Origin: an uncultured Actinomycetota bacterium
GTDB taxonomy: Bacteria > Actinomycetota > Actinomycetes > Prado026
Direction of reading: 5' to 3'
Assembly (NCBI GenBank): GCA_963849365.1
Contig: CAWKHA010000002.1
Location: 3,091-67,090 of the forward strand
Length of the DNA stretch: 64,000 nucleotides
Shown one piece after another: positions 8,702 to 63,630 of the stretch. The notes beneath the pieces are model-generated. The model was given only the letters and a program-made list of their open reading frames with translations. It did not search any database and was not told the origin of the DNA. The position numbers were made by a program, and so were the translations under genes. The first letter of the stretch is position 1. Each line of letters starts with the position of its first letter.

Positions 8702-8776
8702 AGGCAATCCCGGCATCCTCGCGTGCGCCACTCCTCCTCCTCCGTGGAGCAGCCGGACAGACGACCCACCGAATAG

Positions 8777-9184: not shown

Positions 9185-9192
9185 GATGCGCG

Positions 9193-9723: not shown

Positions 9724-9837
9724 ACGGGACAGTCTCGGCCGCACCCGCGGCGTTACGAGGCGCGAGCCGCTTCCGTCACGAAGACGTAAGACGGGCGATC
9801 GTCGCGGCGCGTCGTCGCCGTCCGGCCTGACCGCGGC

Positions 9838-19066: not shown

Positions 19067-19072
19067 CTCCGC

Positions 19073-19116
19073 AGTTTTTTGCCTATCCACTGGTGACAAC
19101 CAGGGACTTAGGTCCC
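19073..19116 (-). promoter_or_regulatory. DosR-like box plus -10 for the regulator-narK-narGHJI operon
   Basis: Near-perfect palindrome GGGACTTAGGTCCC at 19103-19116; AAAACT on the minus strand at 19073-19078. Confidence 0.75.
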
Positions 19117-19196
19117 GGTACCGACCCGGCAGATCCCCTGCTCGTCCTCGAGCGGCCGCCCCGGAGCTAGACTCGACAGTCTCCGGACGGAGAGCG

Positions 19197-19847
19197 ATGA
19201 GCATCGAAGCCGCTGGCCGCACGACCATGACACACGCCGATCAGCTGGAGCTGCTCGTCGACGCGGTCGAGGAGTACGCGATCTTCATGCTCGCCCCCGA
19301 CGGCCGGGTCGTCACGTGGAACGCGGGGGCTCGCCGGATCAAGGGCTACACCGCCCACGAGATCGTGGGGAAGCACTTCCGGGTCTTCTACCCGCCGGAG
19401 GACATCGCCGCCGGCAAGCCCGAGAGCGAACTCGCCCAGGCGCTCAAGTCCGGTCAGTGCCAGGACGAGGGCTGGCGACTGCGCAAGGACGGCAGCCGGT
19501 TCTGGGCCAACGTCGTGATCACCGCCGTCGTCGACCAGGACGGCCGCCCCGAAGGCTTCGCCAAGATCACCCGGGACGACACCGACCGCAGGCGGGCCGA
19601 GGAGCAGGTGCGCCGGCTCGAGCTGCTCACCGAGCGGGAGCGCATCGCCGGCCAGCTGCACGAGCAGATCGTGCACCGGATCTTCGGTGCGGGCCTGGCC
19701 CTGGAGAGCTCGCTCCAGTTCATCCACGACGCCAGCGCCGAGCGCCGGATCCAGGACGCGGTCGAGATGCTCGACGAAGCCGTCAAGGAGATCCGTGCGG
19801 TGGCGCTGGGACTTCGCGAGACCGGCACCATCGGCCCGGCGACCTAG
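19197..19847 (+). CDS. PAS domain plus HisKA_3-type DHp domain, no ATPase domain
   Basis: YAIFML.PDG.V.TWN.GA.RIKGY...EIVG.HF..FY, EGWRLRKDGSRFWANVVIT and GFAKITRD; then ERERIAGQLHEQIVHRIF..GL.L; stops after EIRAVALGLR. TAGACT -10 at 19168-19173. Confidence 0.85.
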   Translation: MSIEAAGRTTMTHADQLELLVDAVEEYAIFMLAPDGRVVTWNAGARRIKGYTAHEIVGKHFRVFYPPEDIAAGKPESELAQALKSGQCQDEGWRLRKDGSRFWANVVITAVVDQDGRPEGFAKITRDDTDRRRAEEQVRRLELLTERERIAGQLHEQIVHRIFGAGLALESSLQFIHDASAERRIQDAVEMLDEAVKEIRAVALGLRETGTIGPAT

Positions 19848-22371: not shown

Positions 22372-23298
22372 CTACGGCACCGGCTCGCTCGTGGGCAGGG
22401 CCCGGGCCGGCGATGGGTGCGCGGCGAGGATCTCGCGCAGTCCGGCCACGAACCGCAGCGACTCGGTGTGGCCGCGCTGCCAGGTGTTGCGCCCGAAGAT
22501 CAGCCCGAGCGCCCCGGCGTCCATCGACTCGCGGGCCTTCTCCAGCATCGCGTCGTCGCCCGCGCGCTCCCCGCCGGAGACCAGCACCAGCGTGCGGTTG
22601 GCCGACCTCACCACGGCGCCGATCGCCTCTCGGCTGGAGAACTCGCGGTCGTACTCCGGCTTCACCGCCGTACGCAGCTCGGGCTGCGGGAAGTTCACCT
22701 TGACCACATCGGCTCCGAGCTCGCTGGCCACCCGCGCGGCGTAGTCGACCGCGTAGAACGACGTCTTGCCGCCCTTGGCCTCGATGGCCGACCCGCGTGG
22801 GTAGGCCCACACGACCAGCGGCATCCCCAGCCGCTGGGCGTCCGCGCGGACCGTGCGCAGGACCTCGAAGTCCGCCTCCTGCGCGGGGCTGCCCACGTAC
22901 AGCGTGTAGCCCACGGCGTCGGCACCCAGCCGGACCGCCTCCGCGACCGTCGCGTTCACCGGCGAGCGCGGCGCCGCGTCCGACGGCACGTCCGTCCTGC
23001 CGTTCAGCTTGAGGACCAGCGGGATCTCGCCCGCGTACGTCCAGTAGAACTTCTCGGCCAGGCCGATCTGCAGCACGATGCCGTTGAAGCCGCCCTCGAT
23101 CGCCAGCCGCAGGACGTACCCGGGATCGCTCGCCGGCGGGTTCGCGAAGAAGTCCCGTGGCCCGTGCTCGAGCCCCTGGTCGTAGGGAAGGAACAGGGCG
23201 GTGCCGTTGCCGAGACCGTTCAGGTAGAGCAGCCGGTGCAGCCGCGCCTTCTTCCCGGTGCTCAGTCCGAGCTCGTCCAGTCCCGCCCTGCTCGTCAT
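22372..23298 (-). CDS. Class I (DhnA/FbaB-type) fructose-bisphosphate aldolase family protein
   Basis: LPYDQGLEHGP, EAVRLGADAVGYTLYVGS, WAYPRG, ELGADVVKVN (Schiff-base Lys), VSGG and GLIFGRN.WQR. Confidence 0.9.
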   Translation of the reverse strand: MTSRAGLDELGLSTGKKARLHRLLYLNGLGNGTALFLPYDQGLEHGPRDFFANPPASDPGYVLRLAIEGGFNGIVLQIGLAEKFYWTYAGEIPLVLKLNGRTDVPSDAAPRSPVNATVAEAVRLGADAVGYTLYVGSPAQEADFEVLRTVRADAQRLGMPLVVWAYPRGSAIEAKGGKTSFYAVDYAARVASELGADVVKVNFPQPELRTAVKPEYDREFSSREAIGAVVRSANRTLVLVSGGERAGDDAMLEKARESMDAGALGLIFGRNTWQRGHTESLRFVAGLREILAAHPSPARALPTSEPVP

Positions 23299-23336
23299 CG
23301 CGACCTCCCGCTGCTCGCGGCCACCCGGAAGGACCG

Positions 23337-23497
23337 ACGCTGGCAGCGCCGCCGCCGCAGGGTCAGAGGCCAAAGTCCCGGACCGGGCAGCCGACCGGCC
23401 ACGGCGCGGGACCGCTGCCGGCCGCGACGCAAGGGTCTTAGGACTGCGAGTTCGGTGTCGAAGGCCTCTCCGCAAGGGCCGCCGCGGGTTGCAGCGT
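23337..23497. promoter_or_regulatory. Divergent DosR-like promoters (aldolase and baeRF gene)
   Basis: GAGGCCAAAGTCCC at 23366-23379 with CAGCGT (minus, 23337-23342); GTGTCGAAGGCCTC at 23455-23468 with CAGCGT (plus, 23492-23497). Confidence 0.6.
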
Positions 23498-23527
23498 GGG
23501 TGCTGCGGATGTCCCGAGGAGGCTTCC

Positions 23528-24676
23528 ATGCTCACTCGCCTGCACGGCTCGGCGTTCGATCGGGTCGTGGATCTCTACAGCGTCCCGGGGCCGGTGACCT
23601 CGGTGTACCTGGGACTCGGCGCGGTCGATGACGTGCGCATGATCGACCTGCGCTGGCGCCACCTCCGCGGCGAGCTGGCCGCAGGCGGCGCGCCGGACGA
23701 CGACCTGGTCCTGCTCGACCTGGAGGTGCAGGCCGCCCGGGCGCACCCGGGGCCGCGCGTGCTGGCGGCGTTCTGCGCCGACGGTCGGCTCGTGGCCTCG
23801 CAGCTGCTCGAGCACGCGGACACACCGGACCGTGCGTGCTTCGGCGCGCTCGCCGCCGGGGGGCCGATGCTCGCCTGGGCACAGCAGCGGATCGCGTACC
23901 TGGTCGTGGTCACCGACCACACCGGCGCCGACATCGAGACCCGGCTGTGGCCGGCGCAGACGCTCTCGGTGGAACACGTCGAGGGCTCCGACGACGAGAT
24001 CCAGATGCACGGCTCCGGCGGCTGGGCGGCGCTCGCGCAGAGCCGGTACCAGCAGCGGGCCGTCGACTCCTGGGAGCACAACGCGGTCGAGGTCGCCGAG
24101 GAAGTCGCCGCCGAGTTCGAGCGCGTCCAGGCGCAGGTCGTCTTCCTGACCGGCGACCCCCGTTCGGTGCACTTCCTGAACGAGTCCCTCCCCAAGCACG
24201 TCCGGCACTGCGTGCGGGTGGTCGACATGGGCGGCACGCGTGGTGCCGGCGGGACCCGTGGTGCGGCCGGCACCTCGCCCCGGCTCGAGGCGGACGTGCA
24301 GGACCTCGTCCAGCGCACGAACACCGCCGCGACGGACGCGATGCTGCGGACCTGGCGTGACCTCGCCGGGCAGGGCCGTGCGGCCACGACCGGCGACCGG
24401 GAGACGGCGACGGCACTGCGCGGGGGCAAGGTGCAGACACTGCTCCTCGGCTACGAACAGGCCAGCCGCCGCAAGGCGTGGCTAGGGCCGGCGCCCGCCC
24501 AGGTGGCCGTCGACCACCACGAGCTGGTGGAGCTCGGCGTGCCCGTCCACCGGGTGCCGCTCGCGGACGCGCTGATCGGCGCAGCGCTGGCGACCAAGGC
24601 CGACGTGTACTTCCTGCCGCCGGACCTGGCGGACGCGCCCCCCGACGGCGTCGCGGCCGTCCTGCGGTACGCCTGA
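23528..24676 (+). CDS. Bacterial aeRF1-fold (baeRF2) protein, Rv2629/Balon-like
   Basis: GPVTSVYL, LRW..LR.EL...GA, YLVVV.D..GADI, GGW...Q.RYQQR..DSWE.N, AL..G.V.TLLL and DGVAAVLRY C-terminus; GGAGG RBS. Confidence 0.82.
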   Translation: MLTRLHGSAFDRVVDLYSVPGPVTSVYLGLGAVDDVRMIDLRWRHLRGELAAGGAPDDDLVLLDLEVQAARAHPGPRVLAAFCADGRLVASQLLEHADTPDRACFGALAAGGPMLAWAQQRIAYLVVVTDHTGADIETRLWPAQTLSVEHVEGSDDEIQMHGSGGWAALAQSRYQQRAVDSWEHNAVEVAEEVAAEFERVQAQVVFLTGDPRSVHFLNESLPKHVRHCVRVVDMGGTRGAGGTRGAAGTSPRLEADVQDLVQRTNTAATDAMLRTWRDLAGQGRAATTGDRETATALRGGKVQTLLLGYEQASRRKAWLGPAPAQVAVDHHELVELGVPVHRVPLADALIGAALATKADVYFLPPDLADAPPDGVAAVLRYA

Positions 24677-24700
24677 TCCGCCGTGCGCCCTCGGGGGTGC

Positions 24701-24743
24701 GGGACCTTCGGCCCTCGCCTGCGCCCCCGGGGTCCTCTAGCGT
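24701..24743 (+). promoter_or_regulatory. DosR-like box plus -10 for the USP-GT4-GH65-GDE operon
   Basis: GGGACCTTCGGCCC at 24701-24714; TAGCGT at 24738-24743. Confidence 0.72.
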
Positions 24744-24780
24744 GCGACGAGGGCGATGGACCCGACGCTGAGGAGCGGCC

Positions 24781-25587
24781 ATGACGCGCGTACTGGCCGG
24801 TGTGGACGGCAGCCCGGTGAGCGTGGACGTCCTGCGCGGGGCGGTCGTGATGGCCGACCTGCTCGGGGCGCAGGCGGAGGCCCTGCACGTGGGACCTGGG
24901 CCGTTGCCGGAGCTGCAGCGGCTGGCGGCCGCGACCGGGGTGCGCCTCGCCGAACGCGAAGGCACGGCCGAGCGCGTCCTGGCAGCGGTCCTGCGGGAGC
25001 ACGACGTGGTCCTCGGCGTCGTCGGCACGTCCGGCGGCGGCCGTGCCGAGGTCCCGGTGGGGCACACGGCCACCGCGGTGATGACCGGCTCCGTCCGGCC
25101 CCTGCTCGTCGTGCCGCCCGGTTCCTTCCCCCCGCACCGCCGGCACGTGCAGCACGCCCTCGTACCCCTGGACGGCCGTCCGGCATCCGCCGAGGCCGTC
25201 GAGCCGATGCTGCGGCTGCTGGGCGAGGCGGGCGTCGACATGCTCGTGGTGCACGTCTTCGACGACGCCACCGTCCCGACCTTCTGGGACCAGCCGCAGC
25301 ACGCCGTGCCCGCCTGGGAGCGCGAGTTCCTGCACCGCAACCTGCCGATGCTGCGCACCCGGCTGCGGCTGTGCCAGGGCGAGCCGGCTGCGCAGCTCGT
25401 GCGCACCGCGAGCGAGCAGGGCATCGATCTCGTCGTCGTGGGCTGGTCGCAGGACCTCTCCCCCGGGCACGCCCGCACCATGCAGCAGCTGCTCAAGGCG
25501 GGCGGCGTCTCGTTGCTGCTCCTCCCGACAGACGGATCCGTGATCGACCTGACCGAAGGCTTCCCCGCCGTCGCCGACCGGGCCTAG
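24781..25587 (+). CDS. Divergent tandem universal stress protein
   Basis: VLAGVDGS, VG.TA.AV....RPLLVVP; second domain LVPLDG...GEPA...DLVVVGWSQDLSPG. Confidence 0.8.
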   Translation: MTRVLAGVDGSPVSVDVLRGAVVMADLLGAQAEALHVGPGPLPELQRLAAATGVRLAEREGTAERVLAAVLREHDVVLGVVGTSGGGRAEVPVGHTATAVMTGSVRPLLVVPPGSFPPHRRHVQHALVPLDGRPASAEAVEPMLRLLGEAGVDMLVVHVFDDATVPTFWDQPQHAVPAWEREFLHRNLPMLRTRLRLCQGEPAAQLVRTASEQGIDLVVVGWSQDLSPGHARTMQQLLKAGGVSLLLLPTDGSVIDLTEGFPAVADRA

Positions 25588-25603
25588 GACGAGGAGGCGA
25601 GCC

Positions 25604-26674
25604 ATGAGAGTCGGACTGGTCGCGCCACCGTTCCTGCCCGTGCCCCCGCCCCGCTACGGCGGCACCGAGCTGGTCGTCGACGCCCTGGCCCGCGGCCTGC
25701 AGGCCGCCGGGCACGATGTGGTGCTGTTCAGCGTCGGCGAGTCCAGCTGCCCGGTGCCGAGCGCCTGGTGGTTCCAGCACGCCGTGGCGCCCATCGGCTC
25801 CTCCGCCGCCGAGGCGACACAGGTCACCGCGGCCTACCGCGACCTCGTCGACGTCGACATCGTGCACGACCACACGCTGCTCGGGCCGCTGGTCTTCGGC
25901 GGCCGGGCCGGCCCGCCCGTGGTCATGACCGTCCACTCCGCGTTCACTCCCGACCTGCGGCCGGTGTACGCCGAGATCGCCCGCCGGGTACCGCTCGTCG
26001 CGGTCTCCCAGGCGCAGTCCGACAGCGCGGGCCGGGTACCGATCCTGCGGGTGGTCCATCACGGCCTCGACCTGCAGCGGTACCCGCCCGGCCCCGGCGA
26101 CGGCGGCTACCTGCTGTTCCTGGCCCGGATGAGCCCGGACAAGGGACCGCAGCACGCCATCCGCATCGCGCGCGCCGCCGGCGTACGGCTCGTCGTGGCC
26201 GCGAAGATGCGCGAGCCCGACGAGCTCGCGTTCTTCCGTTCCGAGATCGAGCCGCAGCTCGGTCCCGACGTCGAGTTCGCCGGCGAGATCGACGTCGCCG
26301 AGCGGGTGCGCCTGCTGCGTGGCGCGACCGCCCTGGTCAACCCCATCCAGTGGCCGGAGCCGTTCGGCCTGAACATGATCGAGGCCCTGGCCTGCGGCAC
26401 CCCGGTGCTGGCCCTGCGGCACGGCGCGGCGCCCGAGATCGTCGTGGACGGGCTGACCGGCTTCCTGCGCACCGATCCTGCGGAGCTGGCGGAGTGCGTG
26501 CACCGGATCGGCGAGATCGACCGGGTCACCTGCCGCGCCGACGCGCAGCGGCGGTTCTCGATGCACCGGATGGTGCAGGACTACCTCGACGTGTACGCCG
26601 GCGTGCTCGGTGACTGCGACCCGAGCAGGCCGATGCGCCCCGAACCCTGGCTGCACGCTGCCCGAGTCACGTGA
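25604..26674 (+). CDS. Glycosyltransferase family 4
   Basis: VPP.RYGGTE, DIVHDH, LARMSPDKG and PIQWPEPFGL.MIEALACGTPV. Confidence 0.93.
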   Translation: MRVGLVAPPFLPVPPPRYGGTELVVDALARGLQAAGHDVVLFSVGESSCPVPSAWWFQHAVAPIGSSAAEATQVTAAYRDLVDVDIVHDHTLLGPLVFGGRAGPPVVMTVHSAFTPDLRPVYAEIARRVPLVAVSQAQSDSAGRVPILRVVHHGLDLQRYPPGPGDGGYLLFLARMSPDKGPQHAIRIARAAGVRLVVAAKMREPDELAFFRSEIEPQLGPDVEFAGEIDVAERVRLLRGATALVNPIQWPEPFGLNMIEALACGTPVLALRHGAAPEIVVDGLTGFLRTDPAELAECVHRIGEIDRVTCRADAQRRFSMHRMVQDYLDVYAGVLGDCDPSRPMRPEPWLHAARVT

Positions 26675-29220
26675 GCGGGACGCCCGAGCACACGTTCGCC
26701 GCCGTGGTGCTCGACTGGTACGGGACGGCAGTGCCGGACCGGCGGTCGGGTGCGGTCCGGCTGCGCCGGCTGCTCGAGAGTCTGTGCGGCTACGGCGTCG
26801 AGATCATCGTCCTCGGTGGTCCCGGCGCCATCGCCGAGATCGACGGCCAGCTCGCCGCCCGCCCGGGCGGGCCGGGCGCCCTGCACGTGTGCGCCGACGG
26901 CGGGACGCACGTGTACCGGATCACGACGGGCGGACCGGTCCGCACGCGGACTGCGGTGACCGGGCCGCAGGGCTGGGTGGTCGACCACCTCGACCGGCAC
27001 GGGATCGGCCCGGGCCTGGTGCTGGCCGTCGGCCCGCGGTCGGCCGAGCTCTTCGCCGGCGCCGCACCGCAGCCGCATCGCGGCGACGGGCCGGCCGCCG
27101 TCCGCGCCCTGCTCGCCCAGCAGGTCGCGGGCCATCGCGACGGCGCGGTGCCCGATCTCGACGACGACGCGCGCTGGCTCGTCCGCGCTCGTACGCCCCC
27201 GTCGCCGCGCCGGGTGTGCCAGGCCCTGACCACTGTGTCCGACGGGCATTTCGGCACCCGCGGCTCGCTCGAGGAGGAGGGTCCCGGCGCAGGTGCCGGC
27301 GTGCTGGCCGCCGGCGTGTACGAGGGGCACGGCGCCGACCAGCACCTGCTCCCCGGACCGCTGTGGACCGTCCTGGGGACTCCCGACGGGCGGGACCCCG
27401 ACGGTCCCCGCCTGCAGACGCTCGACCTGCGGACCGGAGTGCTGTCGCGCCGCTCGGAGGAGGACGGTCACGGGCTGACGAGCCTGCGGTTCGCCTCGGT
27501 CGCCCGGGCCGGCGTGGTCGCCATGCGTGCCCAGGGGCGCCCGGCCGGTGACCCCGGTCCGCCGCTGCGACTGCCCGCCGGCGCGCTCGGGCACAGCGGG
27601 TCATCGTCCGACCTGATGTGGGCGACCGTCGACGGCGGCACCGGGTCCGTGTCCGCGGCCGCTTCCCAGCGCACGTGGCCGTCGCCTCCGCGGGTGGAGC
27701 GCATCGCGGCGTTCACGTCGCAGCCGAGCGGTGCGCCGCGGCCCGGTCCGGTCCGCCGCCGGTTGCGCGCGGCCGCCCGGATCGGGTTCCCCGCCCTGCT
27801 CGCCGAGCAGCGCGCCGCCTGGGCCTCACGGTGGGCGGACGCACGCGTCGACCTGCCCGACGACCCCGCCGCGGAGCTGGCCCTGCGGTTCGCCACGTTC
27901 CACCTGCTCGCGACCGTCGGCGCCGACGGCGAGGCGGCGGTGGGTGCGCGCGGACTGTCTGGTCCCGGCTACTCCGGCCACGTCTTCTGGGACGCCGACG
28001 TGTACGTGCTGCCGGTGCTCGCCGCGGTCCGGCCCGCTGCGGCCAGGGCCATGCTCGGCTACCGCCTGCGACGGCTGGACGCGGCCCGCGCCACCGCCGT
28101 GTCCGAAGGCGGGCGGGGAGCCCGGTTCCCGTGGGAGTCGGCCCGGGACGGCAGCGACGTGACCCCCCGGTCGGCTGTGCTCGGCGACCGGGTGACGGCG
28201 ATCCGGACCGGCGACCTCGAGGTGCACATCGTCGCCGACGTCGCCTGGAGCGCGTGGCGCTACGCGCAGTGGTCCGGCGATGAGGGTTTCCTGCGCGGCC
28301 CGGGGCGCCCGCTGCTCGTCGAGACGGCTCGCTACTGGTCGACCCGAGCCCGCCGCGACCCCGCCGGCGTCGCCCACATCGACGCGGTGATCGGGCCCGA
28401 CGAGTACCACGTGGGTGTCGACGACGACGCGTTCACGAACGTCATGGCCCGGTGGAATCTGCGCCGCGCCGCCGAGCTCGTGCGGCAGGACGGGCCCCCC
28501 GGGCTGTGCGCAGAGGCCGCCGACTGGTGCCGGCTGGCGGATGCCCTGGTCGACGGTTACGACGGGCGCACCCGACGGCACGAGCAGTTCGCCGGCTTCG
28601 ACGGGCTCGAGCCGCTGCTGATCGCGGAGGTCGCCCAGCCACCCGTCGCCGCCGACATCCTGCTCGGGTCCGAACGCGTCGCCGGGGCGCAGATCCTCAA
28701 GCAGGCCGACGTCGTACTCCTGCACCTCCTGGTGCCCGACGAGCTGCCACCGGGTTCGCTGGAGCGCGACCTGGACTACTACGGGCCCCGGACCGCGCAC
28801 GGCTCGTCGCTCTCGCCGGCAGTCAACGCGGCCGTACTGGCCCGGGCAGGGCGCACCGAGGAGGCGCTCCGCTGGTTCCGGATCGCGGCCGCGATGGACC
28901 TCGAGGACTTGTCCGGCATGGCGGGTTCCGGACTGCACCTGGCGACCATGGGCGGCCTCTGGCAGGCGTACGTGCAGGGCTTCATGGGCATCGTTCCCAG
29001 CGCCGCCGGGCTGCAGTTCGACCCGAGGCTTCCGGAGCAGTGGCGGTCCGCGGCCGTCCGCGTGCGCTACCGGGGCCGGCGGGTACGGGCCAGCGTGGAG
29101 GGTGACACCGCGGTGGTCGAGGCGGACCGTCCGATCCGTCTCCTGCTCCCGGAGGCCGGCCCACTGGATGGTCGCCGGATCCGCCTGCGTCGTGACCCGG
29201 CAGGGTGGACGCCCGCGTGA
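26671..29220 (+). CDS. GH65 glycoside phosphorylase/hydrolase with degenerate N-terminal HAD-like segment
   Basis: GARGLSGPGYSGHVFWD, GARFPWES, VIGPDEYH, KQADV and TAHGSSLS; N-terminal FAAVVLDWYGTAV. Confidence 0.9.
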   Translation: MSGTPEHTFAAVVLDWYGTAVPDRRSGAVRLRRLLESLCGYGVEIIVLGGPGAIAEIDGQLAARPGGPGALHVCADGGTHVYRITTGGPVRTRTAVTGPQGWVVDHLDRHGIGPGLVLAVGPRSAELFAGAAPQPHRGDGPAAVRALLAQQVAGHRDGAVPDLDDDARWLVRARTPPSPRRVCQALTTVSDGHFGTRGSLEEEGPGAGAGVLAAGVYEGHGADQHLLPGPLWTVLGTPDGRDPDGPRLQTLDLRTGVLSRRSEEDGHGLTSLRFASVARAGVVAMRAQGRPAGDPGPPLRLPAGALGHSGSSSDLMWATVDGGTGSVSAAASQRTWPSPPRVERIAAFTSQPSGAPRPGPVRRRLRAAARIGFPALLAEQRAAWASRWADARVDLPDDPAAELALRFATFHLLATVGADGEAAVGARGLSGPGYSGHVFWDADVYVLPVLAAVRPAAARAMLGYRLRRLDAARATAVSEGGRGARFPWESARDGSDVTPRSAVLGDRVTAIRTGDLEVHIVADVAWSAWRYAQWSGDEGFLRGPGRPLLVETARYWSTRARRDPAGVAHIDAVIGPDEYHVGVDDDAFTNVMARWNLRRAAELVRQDGPPGLCAEAADWCRLADALVDGYDGRTRRHEQFAGFDGLEPLLIAEVAQPPVAADILLGSERVAGAQILKQADVVLLHLLVPDELPPGSLERDLDYYGPRTAHGSSLSPAVNAAVLARAGRTEEALRWFRIAAAMDLEDLSGMAGSGLHLATMGGLWQAYVQGFMGIVPSAAGLQFDPRLPEQWRSAAVRVRYRGRRVRASVEGDTAVVEADRPIRLLLPEAGPLDGRRIRLRRDPAGWTPA

Positions 29221-29257
29221 GAGGGTCGGCCCGCGCGAGTGGCCGAGGAGGTGCGCG

Positions 29258-31378
29258 GTGAGCGAGGCCTGGTCCTTCCAGGGCGGCCCGCCCGCCCTGC
29301 CCGGAGCGTCCGGCGCGGTCACGCTCGTCGACGGGTCGACCTTCTGCATCAGCAACCGGACCGGCGACATCCTCCCCGGCTCGGTCATGGGTCTGTTCAT
29401 CCGCGACACGCGTTTCGTGTCCACCTGGGTCACCGAGCTGGACGGAACGCGGCTGGAGGCCCTGACCGTGACGGCGGACGACCCGTTCTCGGCAGTGCAC
29501 CTGACCCGTGTGCCGCCCCAGCGGGGTCGGGCCGACAGCGCTCTGCTGATCCTGCACGAGCGCCGGGTCGGCGAGGGCATGTGCATGCAGCTGGAGGTGC
29601 GCAACCTCGGTGCGGACCCGGTCACGTGCACCCTCGCGGTGAACGTGGACGCCGACTTCGCCGACCTGTTCGAGGTCAAGGAGGGGCGGCTCCCCGGGCC
29701 GCAGGAGGTCATGCGGTCCGTGCGCGACGGCACCATCTGGCTGGAGGTCGGGCACCAGGGCGGCCGGCGGGCGCTGGCCCTGTCCGCCACCGGCGGGCCA
29801 GTGCTCTCCCCCGGCTCGCTGACGTGGTACCTGCGGCTGCCGGGCCGTTCGGCCTGGACCGCGTCGGTCGAGGCCGATGCGGTCATCGACGACGTACGGC
29901 TGCGGCCCAGCCACCGCTGCGGCGCGCCGGCGCACGAGGCCGAGCCCGCGGTCCGGCTCCGCCAGTGGCGGTCCGCGGCGCCGGCCGTGACCACCCCCGA
30001 CGCGGGGCTGGCCCGGACCGTGGCCCGCAGCATCGAGGACCTCGGCTCGCTGCGCATGTTCGACCCCAGGCACCCTGCGCGGGTCGTCGTGGCCGCCGGG
30101 GCTCCTTGGTTCATGGCCCTGTTCGGGCGGGACGCCCTGCTCACCTCGCTGATGCTGCTGCCCCTGGACCGCGACCTCGCCCTGGGCTCGCTGCAGAGCC
30201 TCGCCGCCCTGCAGGGCGGCGCCGTCGATCCAGCCAGCGAGGAGGAGCCCGGCCGTATCCCGCACGAGACCCGGTTCGGGCCTGGTGCCGCACTGGCGCT
30301 CGGCGGCGGCAACGTCTACTACGGGACGGCCGACGCGACCCCGTTGTTCGTCGTCCTGCTCGGCGAGCTGCACCGCTTCGGCGCTGACTGGGCGGACGTG
30401 CAGGCCCTCCTTCCGCACGCCGACCGCGCACTGGACTGGGCCGAACGCTTCGGCGACCGGGACGGCGACGGATTCGTGGAGTACGGACGCGCCACCGCGC
30501 GCGGGCTGGCGAACCAGGGCTGGAAGGACTCCTTCGACGGCGTCAACTTCGCCGACGGAAGCCTGGCCGAGCCGCCGATCGCGCTGTGCGAGGTGCAGGG
30601 CTACGTGTACGCCGCGCTGCTCGCCCGGGCCGCCATCGCCGACAGCGAGGGCGACGCTGCGACCGCCCGCAGGTGCACGGACCGCGCCGCGCGGCTGAAG
30701 GCCGCCTTCAACGAAGAGTTCTGGCTGCCCGGACCGGGGTGGTTCGCGGTGGGCCTGGACAAGGACAAGCGGCCGATCGACGCGCTCACCTCGAACGTCG
30801 GGCACTGCCTGTGGTCCGGCATCGTCGACGAGGACAAGGCAGCGATCCTGGCCGAGCACCTCCTGTCCGAGCGCATGTTCACCGGATGGGGTGTACGCAC
30901 GCTCGCGTCCGACATGGGTGCGTACAACCCCATGAGCTACCACAACGGGTCGGTGTGGCCGCACGACAGCACCCTCGTCACGGCCGGACTCATGCGCTAC
31001 GGCTTCGTGGACCAGGCCCAGCGGATCGCGGTCGGCCTGCTGGACGCGGCCGAGCACTTCGGCGGCCGGCTGCCCGAGCTGTTCTGCGGGTTCGACCGGG
31101 ACGACTTCGCAGTGCCGGTGCCGTACCCCACGTCGTGCTCCCCTCAGGCCTGGGCTGCGGCCGCGCCGATCCACCTGCTCCGAACCCTGCTGCGCCTGCA
31201 CCCCGACGTGCCCGCTGGGACGGTGTCCGTGGCGCCGGCCCTGCCCTGGCGCTACCTGCCCATGAGCCTGGACCACCTCAGTCTGGCCGGCGCGCGGGTC
31301 AGCCTGTCGGTCGGCTACGAAGGCTTCACACTCGCCCCGTTGCCGGAGGGTCTCGCCCTGTCCCGGCCCGCCGAATAG
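29258..31378 (+). CDS. Amylo-alpha-1,6-glucosidase (glycogen debranching enzyme-like)/MGH1-like hydrolase
   Basis: GLFIRDTRF.S, DFADLFEV, AAGAPWF.ALFGRD, EEPGRI.HE, YYGT.DATPLF, NQGWKDS, YHNGSVWPHD and RLPELFCG. Confidence 0.92.
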   Translation: MSEAWSFQGGPPALPGASGAVTLVDGSTFCISNRTGDILPGSVMGLFIRDTRFVSTWVTELDGTRLEALTVTADDPFSAVHLTRVPPQRGRADSALLILHERRVGEGMCMQLEVRNLGADPVTCTLAVNVDADFADLFEVKEGRLPGPQEVMRSVRDGTIWLEVGHQGGRRALALSATGGPVLSPGSLTWYLRLPGRSAWTASVEADAVIDDVRLRPSHRCGAPAHEAEPAVRLRQWRSAAPAVTTPDAGLARTVARSIEDLGSLRMFDPRHPARVVVAAGAPWFMALFGRDALLTSLMLLPLDRDLALGSLQSLAALQGGAVDPASEEEPGRIPHETRFGPGAALALGGGNVYYGTADATPLFVVLLGELHRFGADWADVQALLPHADRALDWAERFGDRDGDGFVEYGRATARGLANQGWKDSFDGVNFADGSLAEPPIALCEVQGYVYAALLARAAIADSEGDAATARRCTDRAARLKAAFNEEFWLPGPGWFAVGLDKDKRPIDALTSNVGHCLWSGIVDEDKAAILAEHLLSERMFTGWGVRTLASDMGAYNPMSYHNGSVWPHDSTLVTAGLMRYGFVDQAQRIAVGLLDAAEHFGGRLPELFCGFDRDDFAVPVPYPTSCSPQAWAAAAPIHLLRTLLRLHPDVPAGTVSVAPALPWRYLPMSLDHLSLAGARVSLSVGYEGFTLAPLPEGLALSRPAE

Positions 31379-32774: not shown

Positions 32775-35087
32775 TCAAGCGGCAGCGCGGTTCGCCGCCG
32801 ACAGCAGGATCCTGCGCTCGGCAACGGCGATCGCCTGCCGTGCACGTGCGATCGCGTCCGCGTTCACCGAGATCGACGTGATGCCGAAGCGCACGAGCTT
32901 CTCCGCGAAGTCCGGCCGGTTGGACGGCGCCTGACCGCACAGCGACGACGTGATCCCCGCCGCCGTGCTCGCCTCGATGATCCGCCGTATCGCGTCCAGC
33001 ACCGCAGCGTCGGACTCGTCGAACAGCTCCGCGCAGACCTCCGAGTCGCGGTCCACGCCGAGCATGAGCTGGGTGAGGTCGTTGGACCCGATCGACACCC
33101 CGTCGATGCCCAGCGCGGCGTACTCCGGGATGCGGTAGACGACGGACGGCACCTCCGCCATGACCCAGCGGTGCAGCCCGCGCTGCCGACCGAGCGGGCT
33201 GGCATCGACCAGCTCCAGGCAGGCCTCCAGCTCCCAGAGCGTGCGGACGAACGGGATCATCAGGTGCAGGTTCGGCGTCTGCTCGCGCACCTGCGCGAGC
33301 ACCTCGAGCTCGAGCGCGAACAGGTCCGGCTCGCGGACGTACCGGTAGCAGCCGCGATAGCCGATCATCGGGTTGCCCTCGACCGGCTCGAACCGTTCGC
33401 CGCCGGCCAGGCCCCGGAACTCGTTGGTACGGAAGTCGATGCTGCGGTAGATCACCGGCCGGGGCGCGAACGCCCGCGTGATGCGCAGCAGCGAGTCCGA
33501 CATCTTCGCGGCGAACTCCTGCCGTCCCCCGCGGGCGAGCAGCTCCCGCGGGTGCACGCCGCCGAGCGCGTCGGTGAGCATGAACTCGGCGCGCAGCAGT
33601 CCGACCCCGTCGACCGGCTGGGCCGCCACCTCCTCGGCGTGGTCGGCCATCGCGAGGTTGACGTACAGCCGCGTCGCCAGCGGTTCGGGAGCCGCCGCCG
33701 GCTCGCCACGTGGGGTCGTGACCGCCACGGGCCGGGCGGCCATCGCCGCGGTCACGTCGCCGGCCAGCACGCGGCCGGCGGTCGCGTCCACCGTCACGAG
33801 CTGTCCGTCGTGCAGCACGGTCGTGCCGATCCGGGTCCCGACGACGCACGGCACGCCGAGCTCGCGCGCGACGATCGCGGCGTGACAGGTCATCCCACCG
33901 CCGTCGGTCACCAGGGCCGCCGCCCGCCGGATCGTCGGTACCCAGTCCGGGCTGGTCATCGGCGCGACGAGGATCTCACCGGGCTTCAGCTCGTCGCCGC
34001 TCGCCGGCGCGGTCAGGATCCGCACCGTCCCGGCCACCACCCCGGGCGACGCCGCCTGCCCCTTCAGCAGGACCGGAGCCCCCGCGGCCGCTTCGCCGCC
34101 GGCCGGCCCGGCCGGCGCCTGCGGCGACCGGAGCAGGGTGGTGATCGGTCGGGACTGCACGACGTACCAGTGACCGCCCGACTCGGCCCACTCGATGTCC
34201 TGCGGTTTCCCGTAGTGCTCGTCGACCCGCAGGCCCGTGCGGCTGAGCTCGAGGACCTCCTCGTCGCTGAGCACCCGGCGGCCGGCCTGCTCCGGGCTCA
34301 GCTCGACGGTCGCGTCGTGGCCGTCGGCGCCGCGGACCACCGCGATGGCCTTGTTCCCGACACGCACGGACAGCAGCCGCGGTCCGGACTTGTCGACGAC
34401 GTACGTGTCCGGCTCGACCTTGCCTCCGACGACGACCTCGCCGAGGCCGAACGCGGCCTCGACGACAACCTTGGACAGGTCGGCCGTGGCCGGGTCCGCG
34501 GTGAACATGACGCCGGAGCGCTCGGAGTCGACCATCTCCTGGACGACGACGGCCAGCGCCGGCTCCTCCTGCACGGCCTGGCTGACGCGGTAGGCGACCA
34601 CCCGGCCGCCGTACAGCGACGCCCAGCAGCTGCGGACGGCGTCGAGCAGCTCGACGTCTCCCCTGACGTTCGTGAACGTGGAGTTCATCCCGGCGAAGGA
34701 CAGGTCGCTGCTGTCCTCACCGGTGGCCGAGGAACGGACCGCGACCGGGATCGTGTCTCCCATCGCGTGGTAGGCCGCGAGGATCCGGCTGCGCAGCGGC
34801 TCCGGCACGGTCACGTCGCGGACCAGCGCCTGCAACGCCTCGGCGGCGGCGGACAGTCCCGCGGGGTCGTCGATGTCGACGGCGGCGGACTGCCGGCGCA
34901 GCTCTTCGCGGACGCCGGACTCGTCCAGGACCCACAGGTAGGCCGGTGCGGTGACGACGAAGCCGGGCGGGACGGCCAGGCCGGCCTTGAGCAGCTCGCC
35001 GAGGTTGGCACCCTTGCCCCCGGCCAGGTCGACGTCGTCCTTGCCGATCTCGGACAGCGGCAGCACCCAGGTCTCCATCGTGGTCAC
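32775..35087 (-). CDS. ppsA: Phosphoenolpyruvate synthase (pyruvate, water dikinase)
   Basis: [21 protein letters not shown]...[24 protein letters not shown] (phospho-His), [15 protein letters not shown] and SIGSNDLTQ; the GTG overlaps the ACP stop (ATG 35078 is an alternative). Confidence 0.95.
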
Positions 35088-35362
35088 GTCCCTTCGGACC
35101 CGGCCGCGGCCGCGCCCGCGGTGGCACGCGCCGTGACGTAGCCGGTGAGCCCGTCCAGGCTGCGTACCTGGGCGTAGTCGGCCTCGGGGATGTCGACGCC
35201 GAGGGTCTGCGCGACGCCTTCCACGAGGTTGAGGAAGTCCATCGAGTCTAGGTCGGCCTCGGTCCGCAGGTCGGCCTGCGGGTCGAGCTCGGCGGGGTCG
35301 CAGTCGGGGGCGATCTCCACCAGCAGCGCCTCGAGAGCGGTCCTGACGTCGTCGGTGTTCAT
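35084..35362 (-). CDS. Acyl carrier protein
   Basis: 92 aa, acidic; DLDSMDFL phosphopantetheine site; GVDIPEADY; coupled overlaps on both sides. Confidence 0.9.
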
Positions 35363-36705
35363 AGCTCCTCCGGGTGCTGCAGGGCCGAGTCGACCTCGGC
35401 CAGGTAGAGGGCGCCGCGGTGACCGTCACTCACCCGGTGGTCGGCCGCGAGCGTGGCGACCACGACGCGGCGGACGGTGAGCATCCCGTCGACCGCCCAG
35501 GGCCGCTCCTGCACGCGGCCGAAGCCGACCAGCGCCACCTGCGGCGGGTAGATGACGCCGTGCACCGCTTCGACGCCCTGGTCGCCGAGGTTGGTGACGG
35601 TCAGCGTCGGGTCGCTCATCTCCGACCCGCGCAGCCGGCCGCTGCGGGTCCGCGCGACCAGGTCCTTCAGCCGTGCCATGACCTCCTCCAGCGGCAGCTG
35701 GTCGACGTCGTGGATCGCCGGCGCGATGAGCCCGCCGCCGCGCAGGGACACGGCGACGCCGAGATGGATGTGCTCGGCCGGCCGGAACGCGCCGTCGACG
35801 TAGAAGCCGTTGATCTCGGGCACCTTGCGCACTGCGGTGGCGGCCGCCTTGAGCAGCACGGCGGCGGGCAGGATCCGGTCGGCGACCGCACGGCCGGCGT
35901 TCACCCGCTCGAGCCAGGTCAGCGCGTGGTCCAGGTCGATCGTCGTCTGCAGGTAGTAGTGCGGGATCTCCTTCTTCGACCGGGCCATGAGCGCACCGAT
36001 CGCCTCGCGCATCGCCGCCCCCTTGTCCTGGGCGGCCGCCTTGTCCTGCGCCGCCGCCTTCGCCGGCGCCGCCGGCTTGCGCGGGGTGATGGCCTTCGCA
36101 GGGGTGGCGGGTTCCTGCGTGGGACCTGCCTGCACCGCTGCCTCGACGTCGGCCACGGTACGGATGCCGCCGGCGCGGGTCCCGGGTACCGAGGCCAGGT
36201 CGACACCCAGCTCCGCGGCCCTGCGCCGGGCGAACGGCGATGCGAGCACGCGACCCGGCGCACCGGCCGCGGCGGCGGGTTCCGGCGCGACCGGGACGAG
36301 CTCCGGCGCGACCGCGACGGGTTCCGGGGCGCCGGCCAGGTCGGCCCGCGTCACCGCACCGCCGGGTCCGCTGCCGACCACGTGCTCCAGATCGATCCCG
36401 CGCTCGTGCGCCAGGTGCCGGACGATCGGCGAGGTCACGGCGCCGGGTCCGGGGGCGGGCCCCGCGCCGTCCACCGGGGCGAGCACGGCCAGCGGCGTGC
36501 CCACCGCGACCGTCGTCCCCGGCTCGACGAGCAGCTCGTGCACCCGGCCGTCCTCGAAGACCTCGACGTCGATGGCCGACTTGGCCGTGTCGACGACCGC
36601 CACGATGTCCCCGCGGTGCACGACGTCGCCGGGGTGCACCAGCCACTCCAGCAGCGTCCCCTCGGTCATGTCCGCTCCCAGCGAAGGCATCCGGAACTCA
36701 GCCAC
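35359..36705 (-). CDS. 2-oxoacid dehydrogenase E2 (dihydrolipoamide acyltransferase)
   Basis: [10 protein letters not shown]...W lipoyl domain with DTAKS; two subunit-binding domains; IPHYY and DHRVSDG catalytic motif. Confidence 0.93.
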
Positions 36706-37693
36706 GGCCGACCGCCTCCTCCGCGGCCGCGACGACCCGGTCGAGTCCTGGCAACGCCGCCTGCTCGAGGTGCCGGGCGTACGGGATCGGGACCTCGACG
36801 GCGGCGACCCTGCGGACAGGTGCGTCCAGGTCGTAGAAGCACTCCTCGGCGATCCGGGCGGCTACCTCGGCGGACAGCCCGACGCTGCGCCAGCCCTCGT
36901 CGACCACGACCGCGCGGTGCGTCCTGGTCACCGAGCCGAACACGGTCGCGTCGTCCAGCGGACGCAGCGTGCGCAGGTCGACCACCTCCGCGTCCACACC
37001 GTCCGCGGCCAGGACCTCGGCTGCGTCCAGGCAGGTGGAGAGGCTGCCGCCGGACGTCACCAGCGTGACGTCCGCACCTGCCCTGCGTACCACCGCCCGG
37101 TCGATGTCGACCGGTCCGGCGTCGGCGTCCAGCTCGCCGGAGACGTTGTAGAGCGAGCCGTGCTCGAAGACGACCACCGGGTCCGGGTCCTCCAGCGCCG
37201 TCCACAGCATCCCGCGCGCGTCCGCCAGCGTCGCCGGCGCGACGACGCGCAGGCCGGGGATGTGCGCGTAGAACCCCTCGAGCGAGTGCGAGTGCTGCGC
37301 CGCGAGCTGGCGGCCCGCCCCGGTCGTCATGCGGATCACGAGCGGCACGTTGAACTGGCCGCCGCTCATGTGCAGCAACGTCGCGGCCGAGTTCAGGATC
37401 TGGTCCAGCGCCAACAGCGAGAAGTTCACGGTCATGATCTCGACGATCGGCCGCATGCCGCCCAGGGCCGCGCCGATCCCGGCGCCGACGAACGCCGACT
37501 CCGACAGCGGGGTGTCGCGGACGCGCTGCTCGCCGAACTCCTCGACCAGGCCCAGGCTCACCCCGAAGCCGCCGCCGTACCGGCCGACGTCCTCGCCCAT
37601 GAGGAACACCCGCTCGTCACGGCGCAGCGCGTCCCGGAGCGCTTCACGGACCGCCTCGCGGTACGTGAGGGTGCGTACGGTGGTGACGCTCAT
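36698..37693 (-). CDS. pdhB: Pyruvate/acetoin dehydrogenase-like E1 beta subunit
   Basis: [27 protein letters not shown] and [10 protein letters not shown]. Confidence 0.9.
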
Positions 37694-38667
37694 GACCCAC
37701 TCCTCGGGCTCATGACGAACCGGGTGAGATCCTCGACCGGCTCGTCGCTCCCCTGCTCGGCGAAGGCCACCGCGGCGTCCAGCTCGGCGACGACCTCGGC
37801 CTGAGTCGCGGCCAGCGAGTCGTCGTCGGCCAGGCCCTCGGCGCGCAGCCGGGCCTCGAGCAGGACGAGCGGGTCGCGCAGCTTCCAGTGCTCGATCTCG
37901 GCCTTGTCGCGGTAGCGGTCGGGGTCGTACATCGAGTGCGCCCGGAAGCGGTACGTCCGCGCCTCCAGGAACACCGGCCCACCACCGTCGCGCACGAGGG
38001 CCACCGCGCGCTCGGCGGACTCCCACACCTGCTCGACGTCCATGCCGTCGCAGCTCCAGGCCGGGATCTCGTACGACGCCGCCTTCAGCGGCAGGTTCGT
38101 CTCGGACTCGGACCGGTCCAGCGCGGTGCCCATCGCGTACAGGTTGTTCTCGCACAGGAAGAGCACGGGCAGGTGCCAGAGCGCGGCGAGGTTCACCGAC
38201 TCGTGGAACTCGCCCTCGGCCATGGCCCCCTCGCCGAAGAAGCACACGGTGACCCGCCGGCGCCCAAGCATGCTGTCGGCCAGCGCGAGCCCCACGGCGA
38301 GCGGCAGGCCGCCCCCGACGATCGCGTTCCCGCCGTAGAACCGGGTCGGGGCGTGGAACAGGTGCATCGATCCGCCTCGCCCACGACAGACCCCTTCCAT
38401 CCGGCCGTACATCTCGGCCATCACCGCGTCCATGGGCACGCCCCTGACGAGCGCCTGCCCGTGGTCGCGGTAGGTCGCCACCACCGCGTCCTCGGGCTCG
38501 ACATGGGCGAGGACTCCGGCGGCGATCGCCTCCTCGCCGATGTACAGGTGCACGAAGCCGCGGACCTGCCCGGAGCTGTAGAGCTCGGCGCAGCGCTCCT
38601 CGAACCGGCGGACGCGGAGCATCTGCCGGTACAGGGCCGGCAGGTCCGGGCCGCCCGCCGCGGTCAT
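37690..38667 (-). CDS. pdhA: Pyruvate dehydrogenase-like E1 alpha subunit
   Basis: [27 protein letters not shown] motif GEGA...ENN and [11 protein letters not shown]. Confidence 0.9.
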
Positions 38668-40448
38668 GGCGTCGCTCCGAGGGTGGACAGGTCGCCCTCG
38701 GCCAGCCCCAGCTCGCGTGCTTTCAGCAGGCGCCGCATGATCTTCCCGCTCTGGGTCTTCGGCAGGTCCGGGTCGAAGGCGATCTCGCGGGGGGCCACCG
38801 CCGAACCCAGGCGCTTGCGGCCGAACCCGAGCAGCTCGCGGCGCAGGTCGTCGGTCGGCGCGTACTCCGGCCGCAGCGTGACGAACGCCTTGACCGCCTC
38901 GCCGAAGACCGGGTCGGGCACCCCGATCACCCCGGCCTCCGCGACCGCCGGGTGCTCCATCAACGCGCTCTCGACCTCGAACGGCCCGATGAGGTGTCCG
39001 GCGGACTTGATGACGTCGTCGCCACGACCGACGAACCACACGTAGCCGTCGGCGTCGATCCGGGCCAGGTCCCCGGACAGGTACCACGGGCCGGCGAAGC
39101 ACTTGGCGTACCGGTCGGGGGCGCCCAGGTAGGCGCGCATCAGCGACGGCCACGGGGTACGGAGCGCGATCTCGCCCTCCTCGTCAGGGGCGTCGACGAG
39201 GACGGGGGCGCCGTCCGGGCCGAGGACCCGCTCGCCCGTGGCGTCGTGCCGGACGAGGACGATGTCGACACCGGGCACCGGCCGTCCCATGGACCCCGGA
39301 CGGATCGGTTCGCTCGCGTAGTTCGCGACCATGATCGCGCCTGTCTCGGTCTGCCACCACGTGTCGTGGATCGGGCGGCCGATCGCCTGCTCGCCCCAGA
39401 GCACGACCTCGGGGTTCAGCGGCTCGCCCACGCTGGCGACGTGACGCAGCCGGGACAGGTCGTGCCCCACGATCGGTGCCGGACCCGCCTTCATCAGCAT
39501 CCGCAGCGCGGTCGGGGCCGTGTACCAGACGGTGACCTGCTCGCGCTCCAGCAGTGTGTACCAGCGCGCCACGTCGAACTCGCACTCGTCCACGATGCAG
39601 GTGACACCGCAGGTCAGCGGCGCGACCAGACCGTACGACGTGCCCGTCACCCAGCCCGGGTCCGCCGTGCACCAGAACACGTCGCCGGCGCGCAGGTCCA
39701 GCACGGCCCGGCCGGTGGCGTGGTGGGCGACGACGGCGTCGTGCACGTGCACAGCGCCCTTCGGGGTCCCCGTCGTGCCGCTGGTGAAGTGCACGAACGC
39801 CATGTCCTCCGGGTCCGTCCTGGCGATCTCGTAGTCGGAGGGGGCCGCGTCCATGAGTGGCGCCAGCGGCTGCACGCCCGGCGCGTCGACGCTGTCGGCC
39901 CCCGGCCCGACCAGCAGGACGTGCTCGAGGTCAGGCAGCTGGTCCCGTACCGGCGCGACCTTGCGCCGGTACGCCGCGGCCGTGGTCAGCAGCACCCGCC
40001 CGTGCCCGGCCTGCAGCCGCTGCCGCACCGGCTCCGGTCCGAAGGCCGAGAACAGCGGCGCCACGACGCAGCGCGCCTTGAGCGTGCCCAGCATCGCGAT
40101 GTACAGCTCCGGCAGCCGGCCGCAGAGTCCGAAGACCAGCTGGCCGGGCAGCACGCCGAGGCTTTCCAGCACGTGCGCGAACCTGTTGCTCTGCGCCGCG
40201 AGCTGCGCGTACGTCAGCTCCCGGTCGACGCCGGCCTCGGACAGGAAGCGCAGCGCGGTGACGTCACCGCGACCGCCGGCGACGTGCCGGTCCACCGCTT
40301 CGTACGCAATGTTGAGCCCGCCGCCGGGCAGCCCGTCGAGCTCGGCCCGCGCACGGTCCCAGCTGAAGCCTGCCCTGGCTCGCTCGTAGTCGACGAGGTT
40401 CGCGGCCGCAGCCGCCTGAGCATCCTTGGCGATCACACGTCCGCTCAC
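38664..40448 (-). CDS. acsA: Acetate--CoA ligase (AMP-forming, AcsA type)
   Basis: [51 protein letters not shown] and LPKT.SGKIMRR. Confidence 0.92.
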
Positions 40449-40480
40449 GACCTGCTCCCTCCGCACCCGGTGCACTGACC

Positions 40481-40524
40481 AGCACACCCCAGGGCGGACC
40501 CGCCCGGACAGGGCCGGAGGTCCC
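40481..40524 (-). promoter_or_regulatory. DosR-like box upstream of the acsA operon
   Basis: GGGCCGGAGGTCCC at 40511-40524; weak -10 (TGTGCT, minus, 40481-40486). Confidence 0.62.
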
Positions 40525-40541
40525 CAACGACGTGCGCGGCC

Positions 40542-63494: not shown

Positions 63495-63542
63495 GGCTGG
63501 CTCCTTCGCATGCTCACGGACAGTCGGCTTCTTGCTGTCTCG

Positions 63543-63585
63543 ACTCTGGCCGGTCTGGACCGGCGGACGTAGGGCCGTAGGGCCC
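63543..63585 (-). promoter_or_regulatory. DosR-like box plus -10 for adh-flavodoxin-mgtA
   Basis: Palindrome AGGGCCGTAGGGCCCT at 63571-63586; CAGAGT (minus) at 63543-63548. Confidence 0.65.
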
Positions 63586-63630
63586 TTGGACGCGGCCGGC
63601 TACCGGCCGCAGCGGCACACCCGAAGAAGC

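Follow-up and report, generated by a model that had tools for sequence, protein, structure and literature searches.

An acyl carrier protein (ACP) encoded among the genes of a pyruvate dehydrogenase (PDH)-type complex may provide many bacteria with a private acetyl carrier for life at low oxygen. The genes in question lie in a 64,000-nucleotide stretch of an uncultured Actinomycetota bacterium (assembly GCA_963849365.1, contig CAWKHA010000002.1, positions 3,091 to 67,090; called the window below), in which an AMP-forming acetate ligase (AcsA), the E1alpha, E1beta and E2 components of a PDH-type complex, the ACP and a phosphoenolpyruvate (PEP) synthase (PpsA) follow one another behind an OsdR/DosR-like box. 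Comparison with other genomes reduces this operon to a conserved cassette of five genes, AcsA-E1alpha-E1beta-E2-ACP. We propose, with a probability of about one half, that the cassette is a hypoxic pyruvate/acetate module that would carry acetyl on its own ACP, would use a dihydrolipoamide dehydrogenase (E3) provided in trans and, in this genus, would have had PpsA added to it. If this is true, coenzyme A (CoA) is not the sole carrier of acetyl units in central metabolism.

The operon and the conserved five-gene cassette

The six genes lie on the minus strand (Table 1), and their tight coupling, reported in a preliminary description of this DNA, was confirmed by reading the junctions directly. 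An ATGA overlap joins AcsA to E1alpha, E1alpha to E1beta and E2 to ACP, and E1beta and E2 share the 8 nt GTGGCTGA. The junction between ACP and PpsA is GTGA, or else PpsA begins at an ATG 9 nt further downstream; the GTG at 35087 would give a protein of 770 aa and the ATG at 35078 one of 767 aa. AcsA itself begins at a GTG, 8 nt 3' of GGAGGGAG, in a window with a G+C content of 73%. A scan for terminators and promoters 3' of PpsA found nothing.

Table 1. Genes of the operon and the box in front of it, in window coordinates.
Feature	Position	Strand	Length	Domains, scores and motifs
OsdR/DosR-like box GGGGACCTCCGGCCCT	40510..40525	minus	16 nt	putative site, from sequence; centred ~70 nt 5' of the AcsA start
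AcsA, AMP-forming acetate ligase	38664..40448	minus	594 aa	PF00501 and PF13193; NF003313, 849.7 bits (cut-off 729)
E1alpha, ThDP subunit	37690..38667	minus	325 aa	PF00676; TIGR03182, 427.5 bits (cut-off 393.85); motif GEG...ENN
E1beta	36698..37693	minus	331 aa	Transket_pyr and Transketolase_C; NF006667, 398.4 bits (cut-off 321)
E2, dihydrolipoyl acyltransferase	35359..36705	minus	448 aa	Pfam lipoyl domain, two E3_binding stretches (peripheral-subunit-binding domains), 2-oxoacid_dh
ACP	35084..35362	minus	92 aa	PP-binding, 35.4 bits (cut-off 20.8); DLDSMDF motif; attachment site Ser40
PpsA, PEP synthase (pyruvate, water dikinase)	32775..35087	minus		three Pfam domains; TIGR01418, 772 bits (cut-off 739.75)

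AcsA, both E1 subunits and PpsA score above their equivalog cut-offs, PpsA also above that of NF005057, whereas E2 reaches none of the NCBIfam E2 equivalog cut-offs (its best score is 252.9 against 445); by these scores E2 is the diverged component of the cassette. AcsA can be aligned from end to end with the 572-aa acetyl-CoA synthetase in PDB entry 9g79 (525 bits), and its C-terminal end holds SGKIMRR, the motif of the catalytic and acetylatable lysine. The lipoyl lysine and DHR motif ascribed to E2 are both in place, as Lys42 within DTAKS and as DHRVSDG, and the lysine is kept in 32 of the 33 alignment rows that cover its position. The best solved-structure matches of E2 are mitochondrial-type E2p cores. 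When the cassette-conserved E2 positions were set against the four other E2 domains of the genome, no interpretable active-site change emerged; the Thr at the oxyanion position is shared with three of these four paralogues. The standalone ACP is also as first described, an open reading frame of its own between E2 and PpsA with a PP-binding match above the cut-off. DLDSMD occurs in 61/61 cassette ACPs with Ser40 invariant, and in 22 of these 61 loci an ATGA contains both the stop of E2 and the start of the ACP. The GEG in E1alpha, to which the preliminary description had drawn attention, is present here but was rejected as a signature of the cassette, since 62 cassette E1alphas divide into 37 with GEG and 25 with GDG.

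Homologues of the ACP were found at E <= 0.001 in 20 of 61 related genomes, the source genome included; eleven of these, again counting the source genome, reach E <= 4e-11 and the others are far weaker. All five genes occur together in 9/9 fetched loci of relatives, with AcsA on the opposite strand and convergent in one (L020). The distribution of the E2 gene matches that of the ACP closely: orthologues of 54-71% identity occur in exactly 10 relatives (one, G034, an unpublished genome), each with the ACP immediately adjacent. An E2 fragment of 80% identity lies at a contig end in a further assembly (G004), and all other E2 matches in relatives are at most 37% identical. Given this clean gap, the cassette E2 is, as judged by sequence identity, a clade of its own that always comes with an adjacent ACP.

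Beyond the relatives, an ACP profile run on one genome per species matched at least 584 stretches, and gene architectures were read from the 80 best loci. All five genes stand in the same order in 55 of these, and in 15 more E2 directly precedes the ACP with the upstream part cut off by a contig end, making 70 of the 80 best loci cassette type. The remainder are AcsA-ACP-GNAT (3/80), ACP-GNAT fusions (2/80), a ketosynthase (KS)-ACP-amine oxidase arrangement with more distant members of the ACP family (4/80) and a lone ACP beside CBS/BON and GroEL genes (1/80). In an even sample of the phylum the profile matched 25 of 401 genomes at 1e-12, 12 strongly and 13 weakly, the weak ones all from one family and one of them (G374) an unpublished genome. 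The expectation that similar clusters exist elsewhere, and that their E1, E2, AcsA and ACP co-occur as a clade, thus held. What did not hold is the six-gene unit: PpsA directly follows the ACP only in the window and in three other loci (L014, L015 and L098), two of which, L014 and L015, are from the same genus. On this distribution PpsA is an accessory added in this genus and not part of the conserved cassette.

Carriers of the cassette include non-tuberculous mycobacteria, Burkholderiales, Vibrionaceae, Gemmatimonadota and Acidobacteriota. In a tree of E1beta, the copies from Mycobacteriaceae make up a single clade (support 100), and the actinobacterial group of the window is separate, nested in a set of 27 rows dominated by Pseudomonadota, a position compatible with transfer between phyla, although not proof of it. 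In Vibrio albus (L070:5731-7743) and in locus L068 the cassette E1alpha and E1beta are fused into one 671-aa protein. No further conserved neighbour beyond the five genes was found across 86 clustered loci, in which universal stress protein (USP) genes are the next commonest real neighbour (14 of 86).

How does the cassette relate to the rest of the genome (3.84 Mb, 97.6% complete; the window lies on contig C2)? The window lacks an E3 gene (no homologue by tblastn with the genome's own Lpd), a phosphopantetheinyl transferase (PPTase) gene and a ketosynthase gene, as had been noted; the sole AcpS lies on contig C4, and ketosynthase matches are confined to contigs C1, C3 and C4. The description of the complex as one with no E3 therefore stands for the window but not for the cell, in which E3 is available in trans: Lpd-type genes lie elsewhere in the genome, one adjoining another E2, and the cassette E2 keeps two E3/E1-binding domains. 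The genome also encodes a canonical Acs (966 bits) and a housekeeping AceE-type E1p, and by this comparison the cassette is a second, specialised PDH/Acs set beside the housekeeping AceE-type PDH and Acs. There are three carrier-protein genes in the genome, the cassette ACP and two beside ketosynthases, and the PpsA of the operon is its only PEP synthase above cut-off. A search for sequencing runs that contain this genome turned up no RNA run and a single soil-metagenome DNA run, with a share of 0.07.

A low-oxygen setting in several phyla

What controls the operon? The box GGGGACCTCCGGCCCT lies within the 93-nt spacer between the stop of an upstream ABC-2 permease gene and the AcsA GTG. It agrees at 14/16 positions, and differs at 2, with the OsdR site of SCO5979, CGGGACCTTCGGCCCT, which was validated by electrophoretic mobility shift assay according to the text of PMC5069765; the OsdR consensus published there is AGGGCCGATCGGCCCT. 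The DosR-like box that the preliminary description placed ahead of the operon is thus upheld as a putative site. Similar boxes stand in promoter-like positions ahead of USP-type genes of the window, at 5886, 24701, 43209/43260, 47214/47245 and 54593/55528, and another precedes a Zn-ADH gene at 62484-63599. Taken alone, the relaxed motif is only modestly enriched in the window: 21 matches were counted where 13.7 +/- 3.1 are expected, and 1 of 100 shuffles gave as many. For GGGAC-N4-GTCCC with 2 mismatches no enrichment was seen (79 matches against 115 expected).

The genes around the operon form what resembles a dormancy island, with five USP genes, a nitroreductase, narG, narI, an Rv2632c-like gene, P-type ATPases, an arginine deiminase and the Zn-ADH. 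From 0.3 to 3.4 kb past the right end of the window (G000 C2:67404-70466, equivalent to L108:405-3467) lie a GAF-GAF-HisKA_3-HATPase kinase and a REC+GerE regulator, the architecture of DosS and DosR, and this pair likely regulates the island. It is followed by an Acg-like nitroreductase, an acetyl-CoA hydrolase/transferase and cytochrome bd subunit II. Box, island genes and the nearby DosS/DosR-type pair agree with the low-oxygen setting first suggested for the operon, and the best explanation of its context would be a transcription unit under OsdR/DosR-type control that is induced by low oxygen.

Similar to the DosR and OsdR regulons of mycobacteria and Streptomyces, the island combines a box resembling theirs with USPs, a nitroreductase and a nitrate reductase. 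An AcsA-E1-E2-ACP unit, in contrast, is not mentioned in the main texts of the two DosR/OsdR papers cited here, their supplementary gene lists being outside the search. PEP synthase does have counterparts in these regulons. In hypoxic Mycobacterium smegmatis the DosR-regulated PEP synthase MSMEG_3934, described there as of unknown function, is induced ~70-fold (bioRxiv 10.1101/2023.09.11.557286), which fits PpsA as a recurrent accessory of the dormancy island. OsdR, moreover, is described as binding between SCO0207 and SCO0208, the latter a pyruvate phosphate dikinase gene (PMC5069765). The proposed module bears on why dormancy regulons hold AMP-dependent enzymes such as PEP synthase.

Low-oxygen boxes also precede the cassette elsewhere, in different phyla, with positions measured relative to the longest open reading frame. 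Of 14 mycobacterial loci, 8 have exact GGGNC-N4-GNCCC boxes 5' of AcsA, often in tandem (GGGTCCTTGGTCCC / GGGTCATTGGGCCC); their density there is 1.75 per kb, compared with 0.147 per kb over the remainder of these loci. In proteobacterial loci it is FNR-type TTGAT-N4-ATCAA boxes (at most one mismatch) that lie 5' of AcsA, in 6 of 22 loci and at 0.71 against 0.052 per kb. These contrasts in density are conservative, because the background includes other stress promoters. Neighbours in mycobacterial-type loci comprise Acg-like nitroreductases, a WS/DGAT gene and a group-3b-like NiFe hydrogenase. The cassette thus appears to sit behind different low-oxygen regulators depending on the phylum, DosR-type in mycobacteria and FNR-type in proteobacteria, and as such it probably belongs to the common, still unstudied means by which aerobes endure anoxia.

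A proposed private acetyl carrier and the alternatives

How could such a module work? In the proposed sequence of events, E1 would decarboxylate pyruvate and acetylate the lipoyl arm of E2, and E2 would transfer the acetyl to the thiol on the phosphopantetheine arm of its private holo-ACP, instead of or besides free CoA, in the way that QncL passes its acyl group to QncM. The housekeeping Lpd would dock on the E2 binding domains as E3 and re-oxidise the lipoyl arm, and the resulting NADH could go to the nitrate reductase of the island. AcsA would interconvert the acetyl thioester and acetate, with AMP and pyrophosphate (PPi) on one side and ATP on the other, and PpsA would link PEP and pyruvate with AMP and ATP. 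That acetyl sits on the ACP, which enzymes would use it there and in which direction the flux would run are inferred.

Two groups of known systems frame this proposal. Like the PDH complexes with heterotetrameric E1 of alphaproteobacteria, mitochondria and Gram-positive bacteria (PdhA/PdhB/PdhC with Lpd), the cassette has E1alpha and E1beta above PDH equivalog cut-offs and an E2 with lipoyl, peripheral-subunit-binding and catalytic domains. It differs from them in having no E3 gene in or near it (a single distant Lpd match of 29% identity in 87 loci, and none in the window), an ACP after E2, AcsA before E1, and an E2 that falls below all E2 equivalog cut-offs and forms its own clade. The closest precedent for E1/E2-type loading of a dedicated ACP is QncN/L/M of quinocarcin biosynthesis, which together with SclQ1-4 of scleric acid belongs to the glycolicacyl-ACP systems, where the acyl group ends on an ACP (PMC6335953). 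As far as that paper's text describes them, these systems likewise encode a ThDP-dependent E1-type enzyme, a lipoyl E2-type acyltransferase and a dedicated ACP together, without E3. Their E1, in contrast, is transketolase-like, acts on a ketose phosphate and belongs to secondary-metabolite clusters; the cassette E1 is PDH-type (transketolase models score far below their cut-offs on it), AcsA is included, and the genes lie in a dormancy island and have no assembly line near them, the Qnc proteins being compared here by description. The statement that no biochemical description of the combination is known can accordingly be kept only in part: no published description of the cassette was found in the literature searched, supplements being outside the search, whereas loading of a dedicated ACP by E1/E2-type enzymes is already known from the source just cited. 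What appears to be new is the coupling of a PDH-type E1/E2 to a carrier protein outside secondary metabolism, in a central setting under hypoxic control.

A structural model was made of three copies of the E2 catalytic domain (residues 218-448) with the ACP, each with a custom 62-row alignment. It scored a median of 0.58 (runs 0.57, 0.58 and 0.63), and the best of three controls scored 0.00. At least 86% of contacts recur between runs, and the partner pLDDT is at least 81. The score mark is reached by 58 of 80 solved complexes and by 2 of 110 mismatched pairs, and at scores up to 0.60 by only 7 of the 80 solved complexes plus both passing mismatches; these counts apply only approximately, as custom alignments were used in a job unlike the calibration set. 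The model lends weak support to E2 as the partner of the ACP. The best indirect sign that the ACP could carry acetyl as a private substitute for CoA is a different one, namely that its family accompanies three enzymes that normally use acetyl-CoA, E2, AcsA and Pat, the last of which is taken up below.

Several findings weigh against a carrier-bound acetyl branch. AcsA is a typical acetate-CoA ligase by its equivalog score and its alignment to the CoA-dependent 9g79 enzyme, with no sequence sign of a switch to ACP, and in E2 the active-site motifs common to E2p enzymes are intact. Across 86 loci the cassette has neither a conserved PPTase beside it nor a conserved gene whose product would load the ACP with acetyl or draw on acetyl-ACP. 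The median score of the E2/ACP model falls within a range rated more often wrong than right. An apparent E2-ACP fusion, P0044, loses its E2 homology after residue 328, probably through a frameshift; like the other database 'fusions' of E2 with ACP (7/75) and of AcsA with ACP (3/75), it was not counted as evidence. Finally, the genome has an acetate kinase gene (C4:8288-9199).

Could the ACP instead be a regulatory or sensor protein beside an ordinary, CoA-dependent second PDH and Acs for hypoxia, for instance an acetyl arm that reports the thioester state to Pat-type acetyltransferases which switch AcsA off? Such a role would suit an AcsA, E1alpha and E1beta that score as a bona fide acetate-CoA ligase and PDH E1, as well as the SGKIMRR motif and the full-length alignment of AcsA with 9g79. 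It would also suit the wider ACP family. Among its longer homologues, 56 of 75 are ACP-GNAT fusions of ~265 aa. Two such fusions were read in frame (L035:8932-9798 and L053:8908-9828, both on the plus strand), and their GNAT halves have Pat-type protein lysine acetyltransferases as best matches (PDB 9it0, 4nxy, 4ava and 4orf) and match NF058543 below its cut-off. Three Rhodocyclales-like loci (L025, L050 and L082) encode AcsA, ACP and GNAT as separate genes. These five loci, three with AcsA directly upstream, recall the Bacillus-type AcsA under GNAT control (AcuA, Pat), to whose ligase (9g79) the cassette AcsA is a close full-length relative with the acetylatable lysine motif kept; no ACP, however, was found in any description of those systems, nor any description of an ACP-Pat (ACP-GNAT) architecture in the literature searched. 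For the cassette itself, the operon of the window and the 70 cassette-type loci are without a GNAT, the ACP is translationally coupled to E2 and not to AcsA, and the modelled complex, at its low level of support, would name E2 as the partner. We regard such a regulatory ACP as the main rival to our proposal, although a fairly unlikely one.

A more far-reaching form of our proposal concerns energy. If loading of the ACP is driven by PDH, an essentially irreversible step, the ratio of acetyl-ACP to holo-ACP could far exceed that of acetyl-CoA to CoA and push AcsA backwards. The net reaction would be pyruvate + NAD+ + AMP + PPi -> acetate + CO2 + NADH + ATP, to which PpsA would add, in this genus, a second AMP-to-ATP step from PEP. 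This would be a CoA-independent acetyl branch and a new substrate-level phosphorylation used by aerobes in many phyla under anoxia, with the ACP family also donating acetyl to Pat-type acetyltransferases, and we consider it rather unlikely. The fermentative recharging of AMP put forward in the preliminary description, with AcsA and PpsA both running toward ATP, is plausible by analogy, though here too we would give it a low probability. For the ATP direction there is a precedent in Syntrophus aciditrophicus, whose AMP-forming Acs, according to the text of PMC4992975, makes acetate and ATP from acetyl-CoA, AMP and PPi; the PTA_PTB domain was likewise not found anywhere in the present genome (97.6% complete). 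The Syntrophus enzyme differs, as described there, in using free acetyl-CoA, with no private carrier and no coupling to PDH.

Another use of acetyl-ACP would be biosynthetic. E1/E2, from pyruvate, and AcsA, from acetate, could make an acetyl-ACP primer or donor for enzymes elsewhere, for example of the KAS III type in the making of a hypoxic storage lipid. By analogy this could resemble the Qnc and Scl systems, which feed assembly lines; one cassette (L019) has a WS/DGAT gene and two KAS III-like genes as neighbours, and the KS-ACP-amine oxidase loci mentioned above (4/80) place distant family members next to a condensing enzyme. Against such a supply role, no condensing enzyme, acyltransferase, or nonribosomal peptide or polyketide synthetase (NRPS/PKS) is conserved beside the cassette in 86 loci, no NRPS, PKS or KS gene was found in the window, and the E1 is PDH-type and not transketolase-like. 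We hold it to be distinctly improbable.

The other idea of the preliminary description, an acyloin-type condensation by E1/E2, gained no support. It enters a last reading, in which the pathway would run in the reductive direction as a sink for NADH: acetate activated by AcsA would pass via the ACP and E2 to E1, which would release acetaldehyde or an acyloin for further reduction by the Zn-ADH. The Zn-ADH gene does lie behind a similar box, and AcsA would run in its usual direction. Such a reversal would, however, cost ATP during an energy shortage, and no carboligase-specific feature was seen. We know of no precedent for net reversal through a PDH-type E1, and among the explanations considered this one strikes us as very improbable.

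Further members of the ACP family and neighbouring genes

The three database entries with an apparent AcsA-ACP fusion (P0070, P0006 and P0056) have only an N-terminal AMP-binding fragment before the ACP and were rejected as fusions. They look like remnants of decayed cassettes without the rest of AcsA, E1 and E2; P0070 is named by its source an acetyl-CoA synthetase of Mycolicibacterium gilvum. The lone ACP of the cassette family is found in Burkholderia diffusa (L096, 7766-12136) between a CBS/BON-domain gene and a GroEL paralogue, a gene set that resembles the low-oxygen (lxa) locus of B. cenocepacia; the main text of the lxa paper makes no mention of an ACP.

In the L019 locus, from a relative with a 6.2-Mb genome (G057), the stretch 2327-9896 beside the cassette holds, with the WS/DGAT gene (triacylglycerol synthase-type) and the two KAS III-like genes, four group-3b-like NiFe hydrogenase subunits. 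USP and GAF-kinase genes lie on the other flank of that cassette.

Within the window, a perfect palindrome, GGGACTTAGGTCCC, occurs at 19103-19116, inside the stop-to-stop frame of a PAS/HisKA_3 open reading frame (18852-19847) in which no HATPase domain was detected; this frame may represent a second sensor that is truncated or controls its own expression. The interval from the nitrate reductase genes to the operon (22372-31378) holds genes for a DeoC-type aldolase, a baeRF family-2 release-factor-like protein, a USP, a GT4 glycosyltransferase, a GH65 phosphorylase and a debranching-enzyme-like protein. This set of genes suggests a turnover of sugar or trehalose-type storage compounds in the same island.

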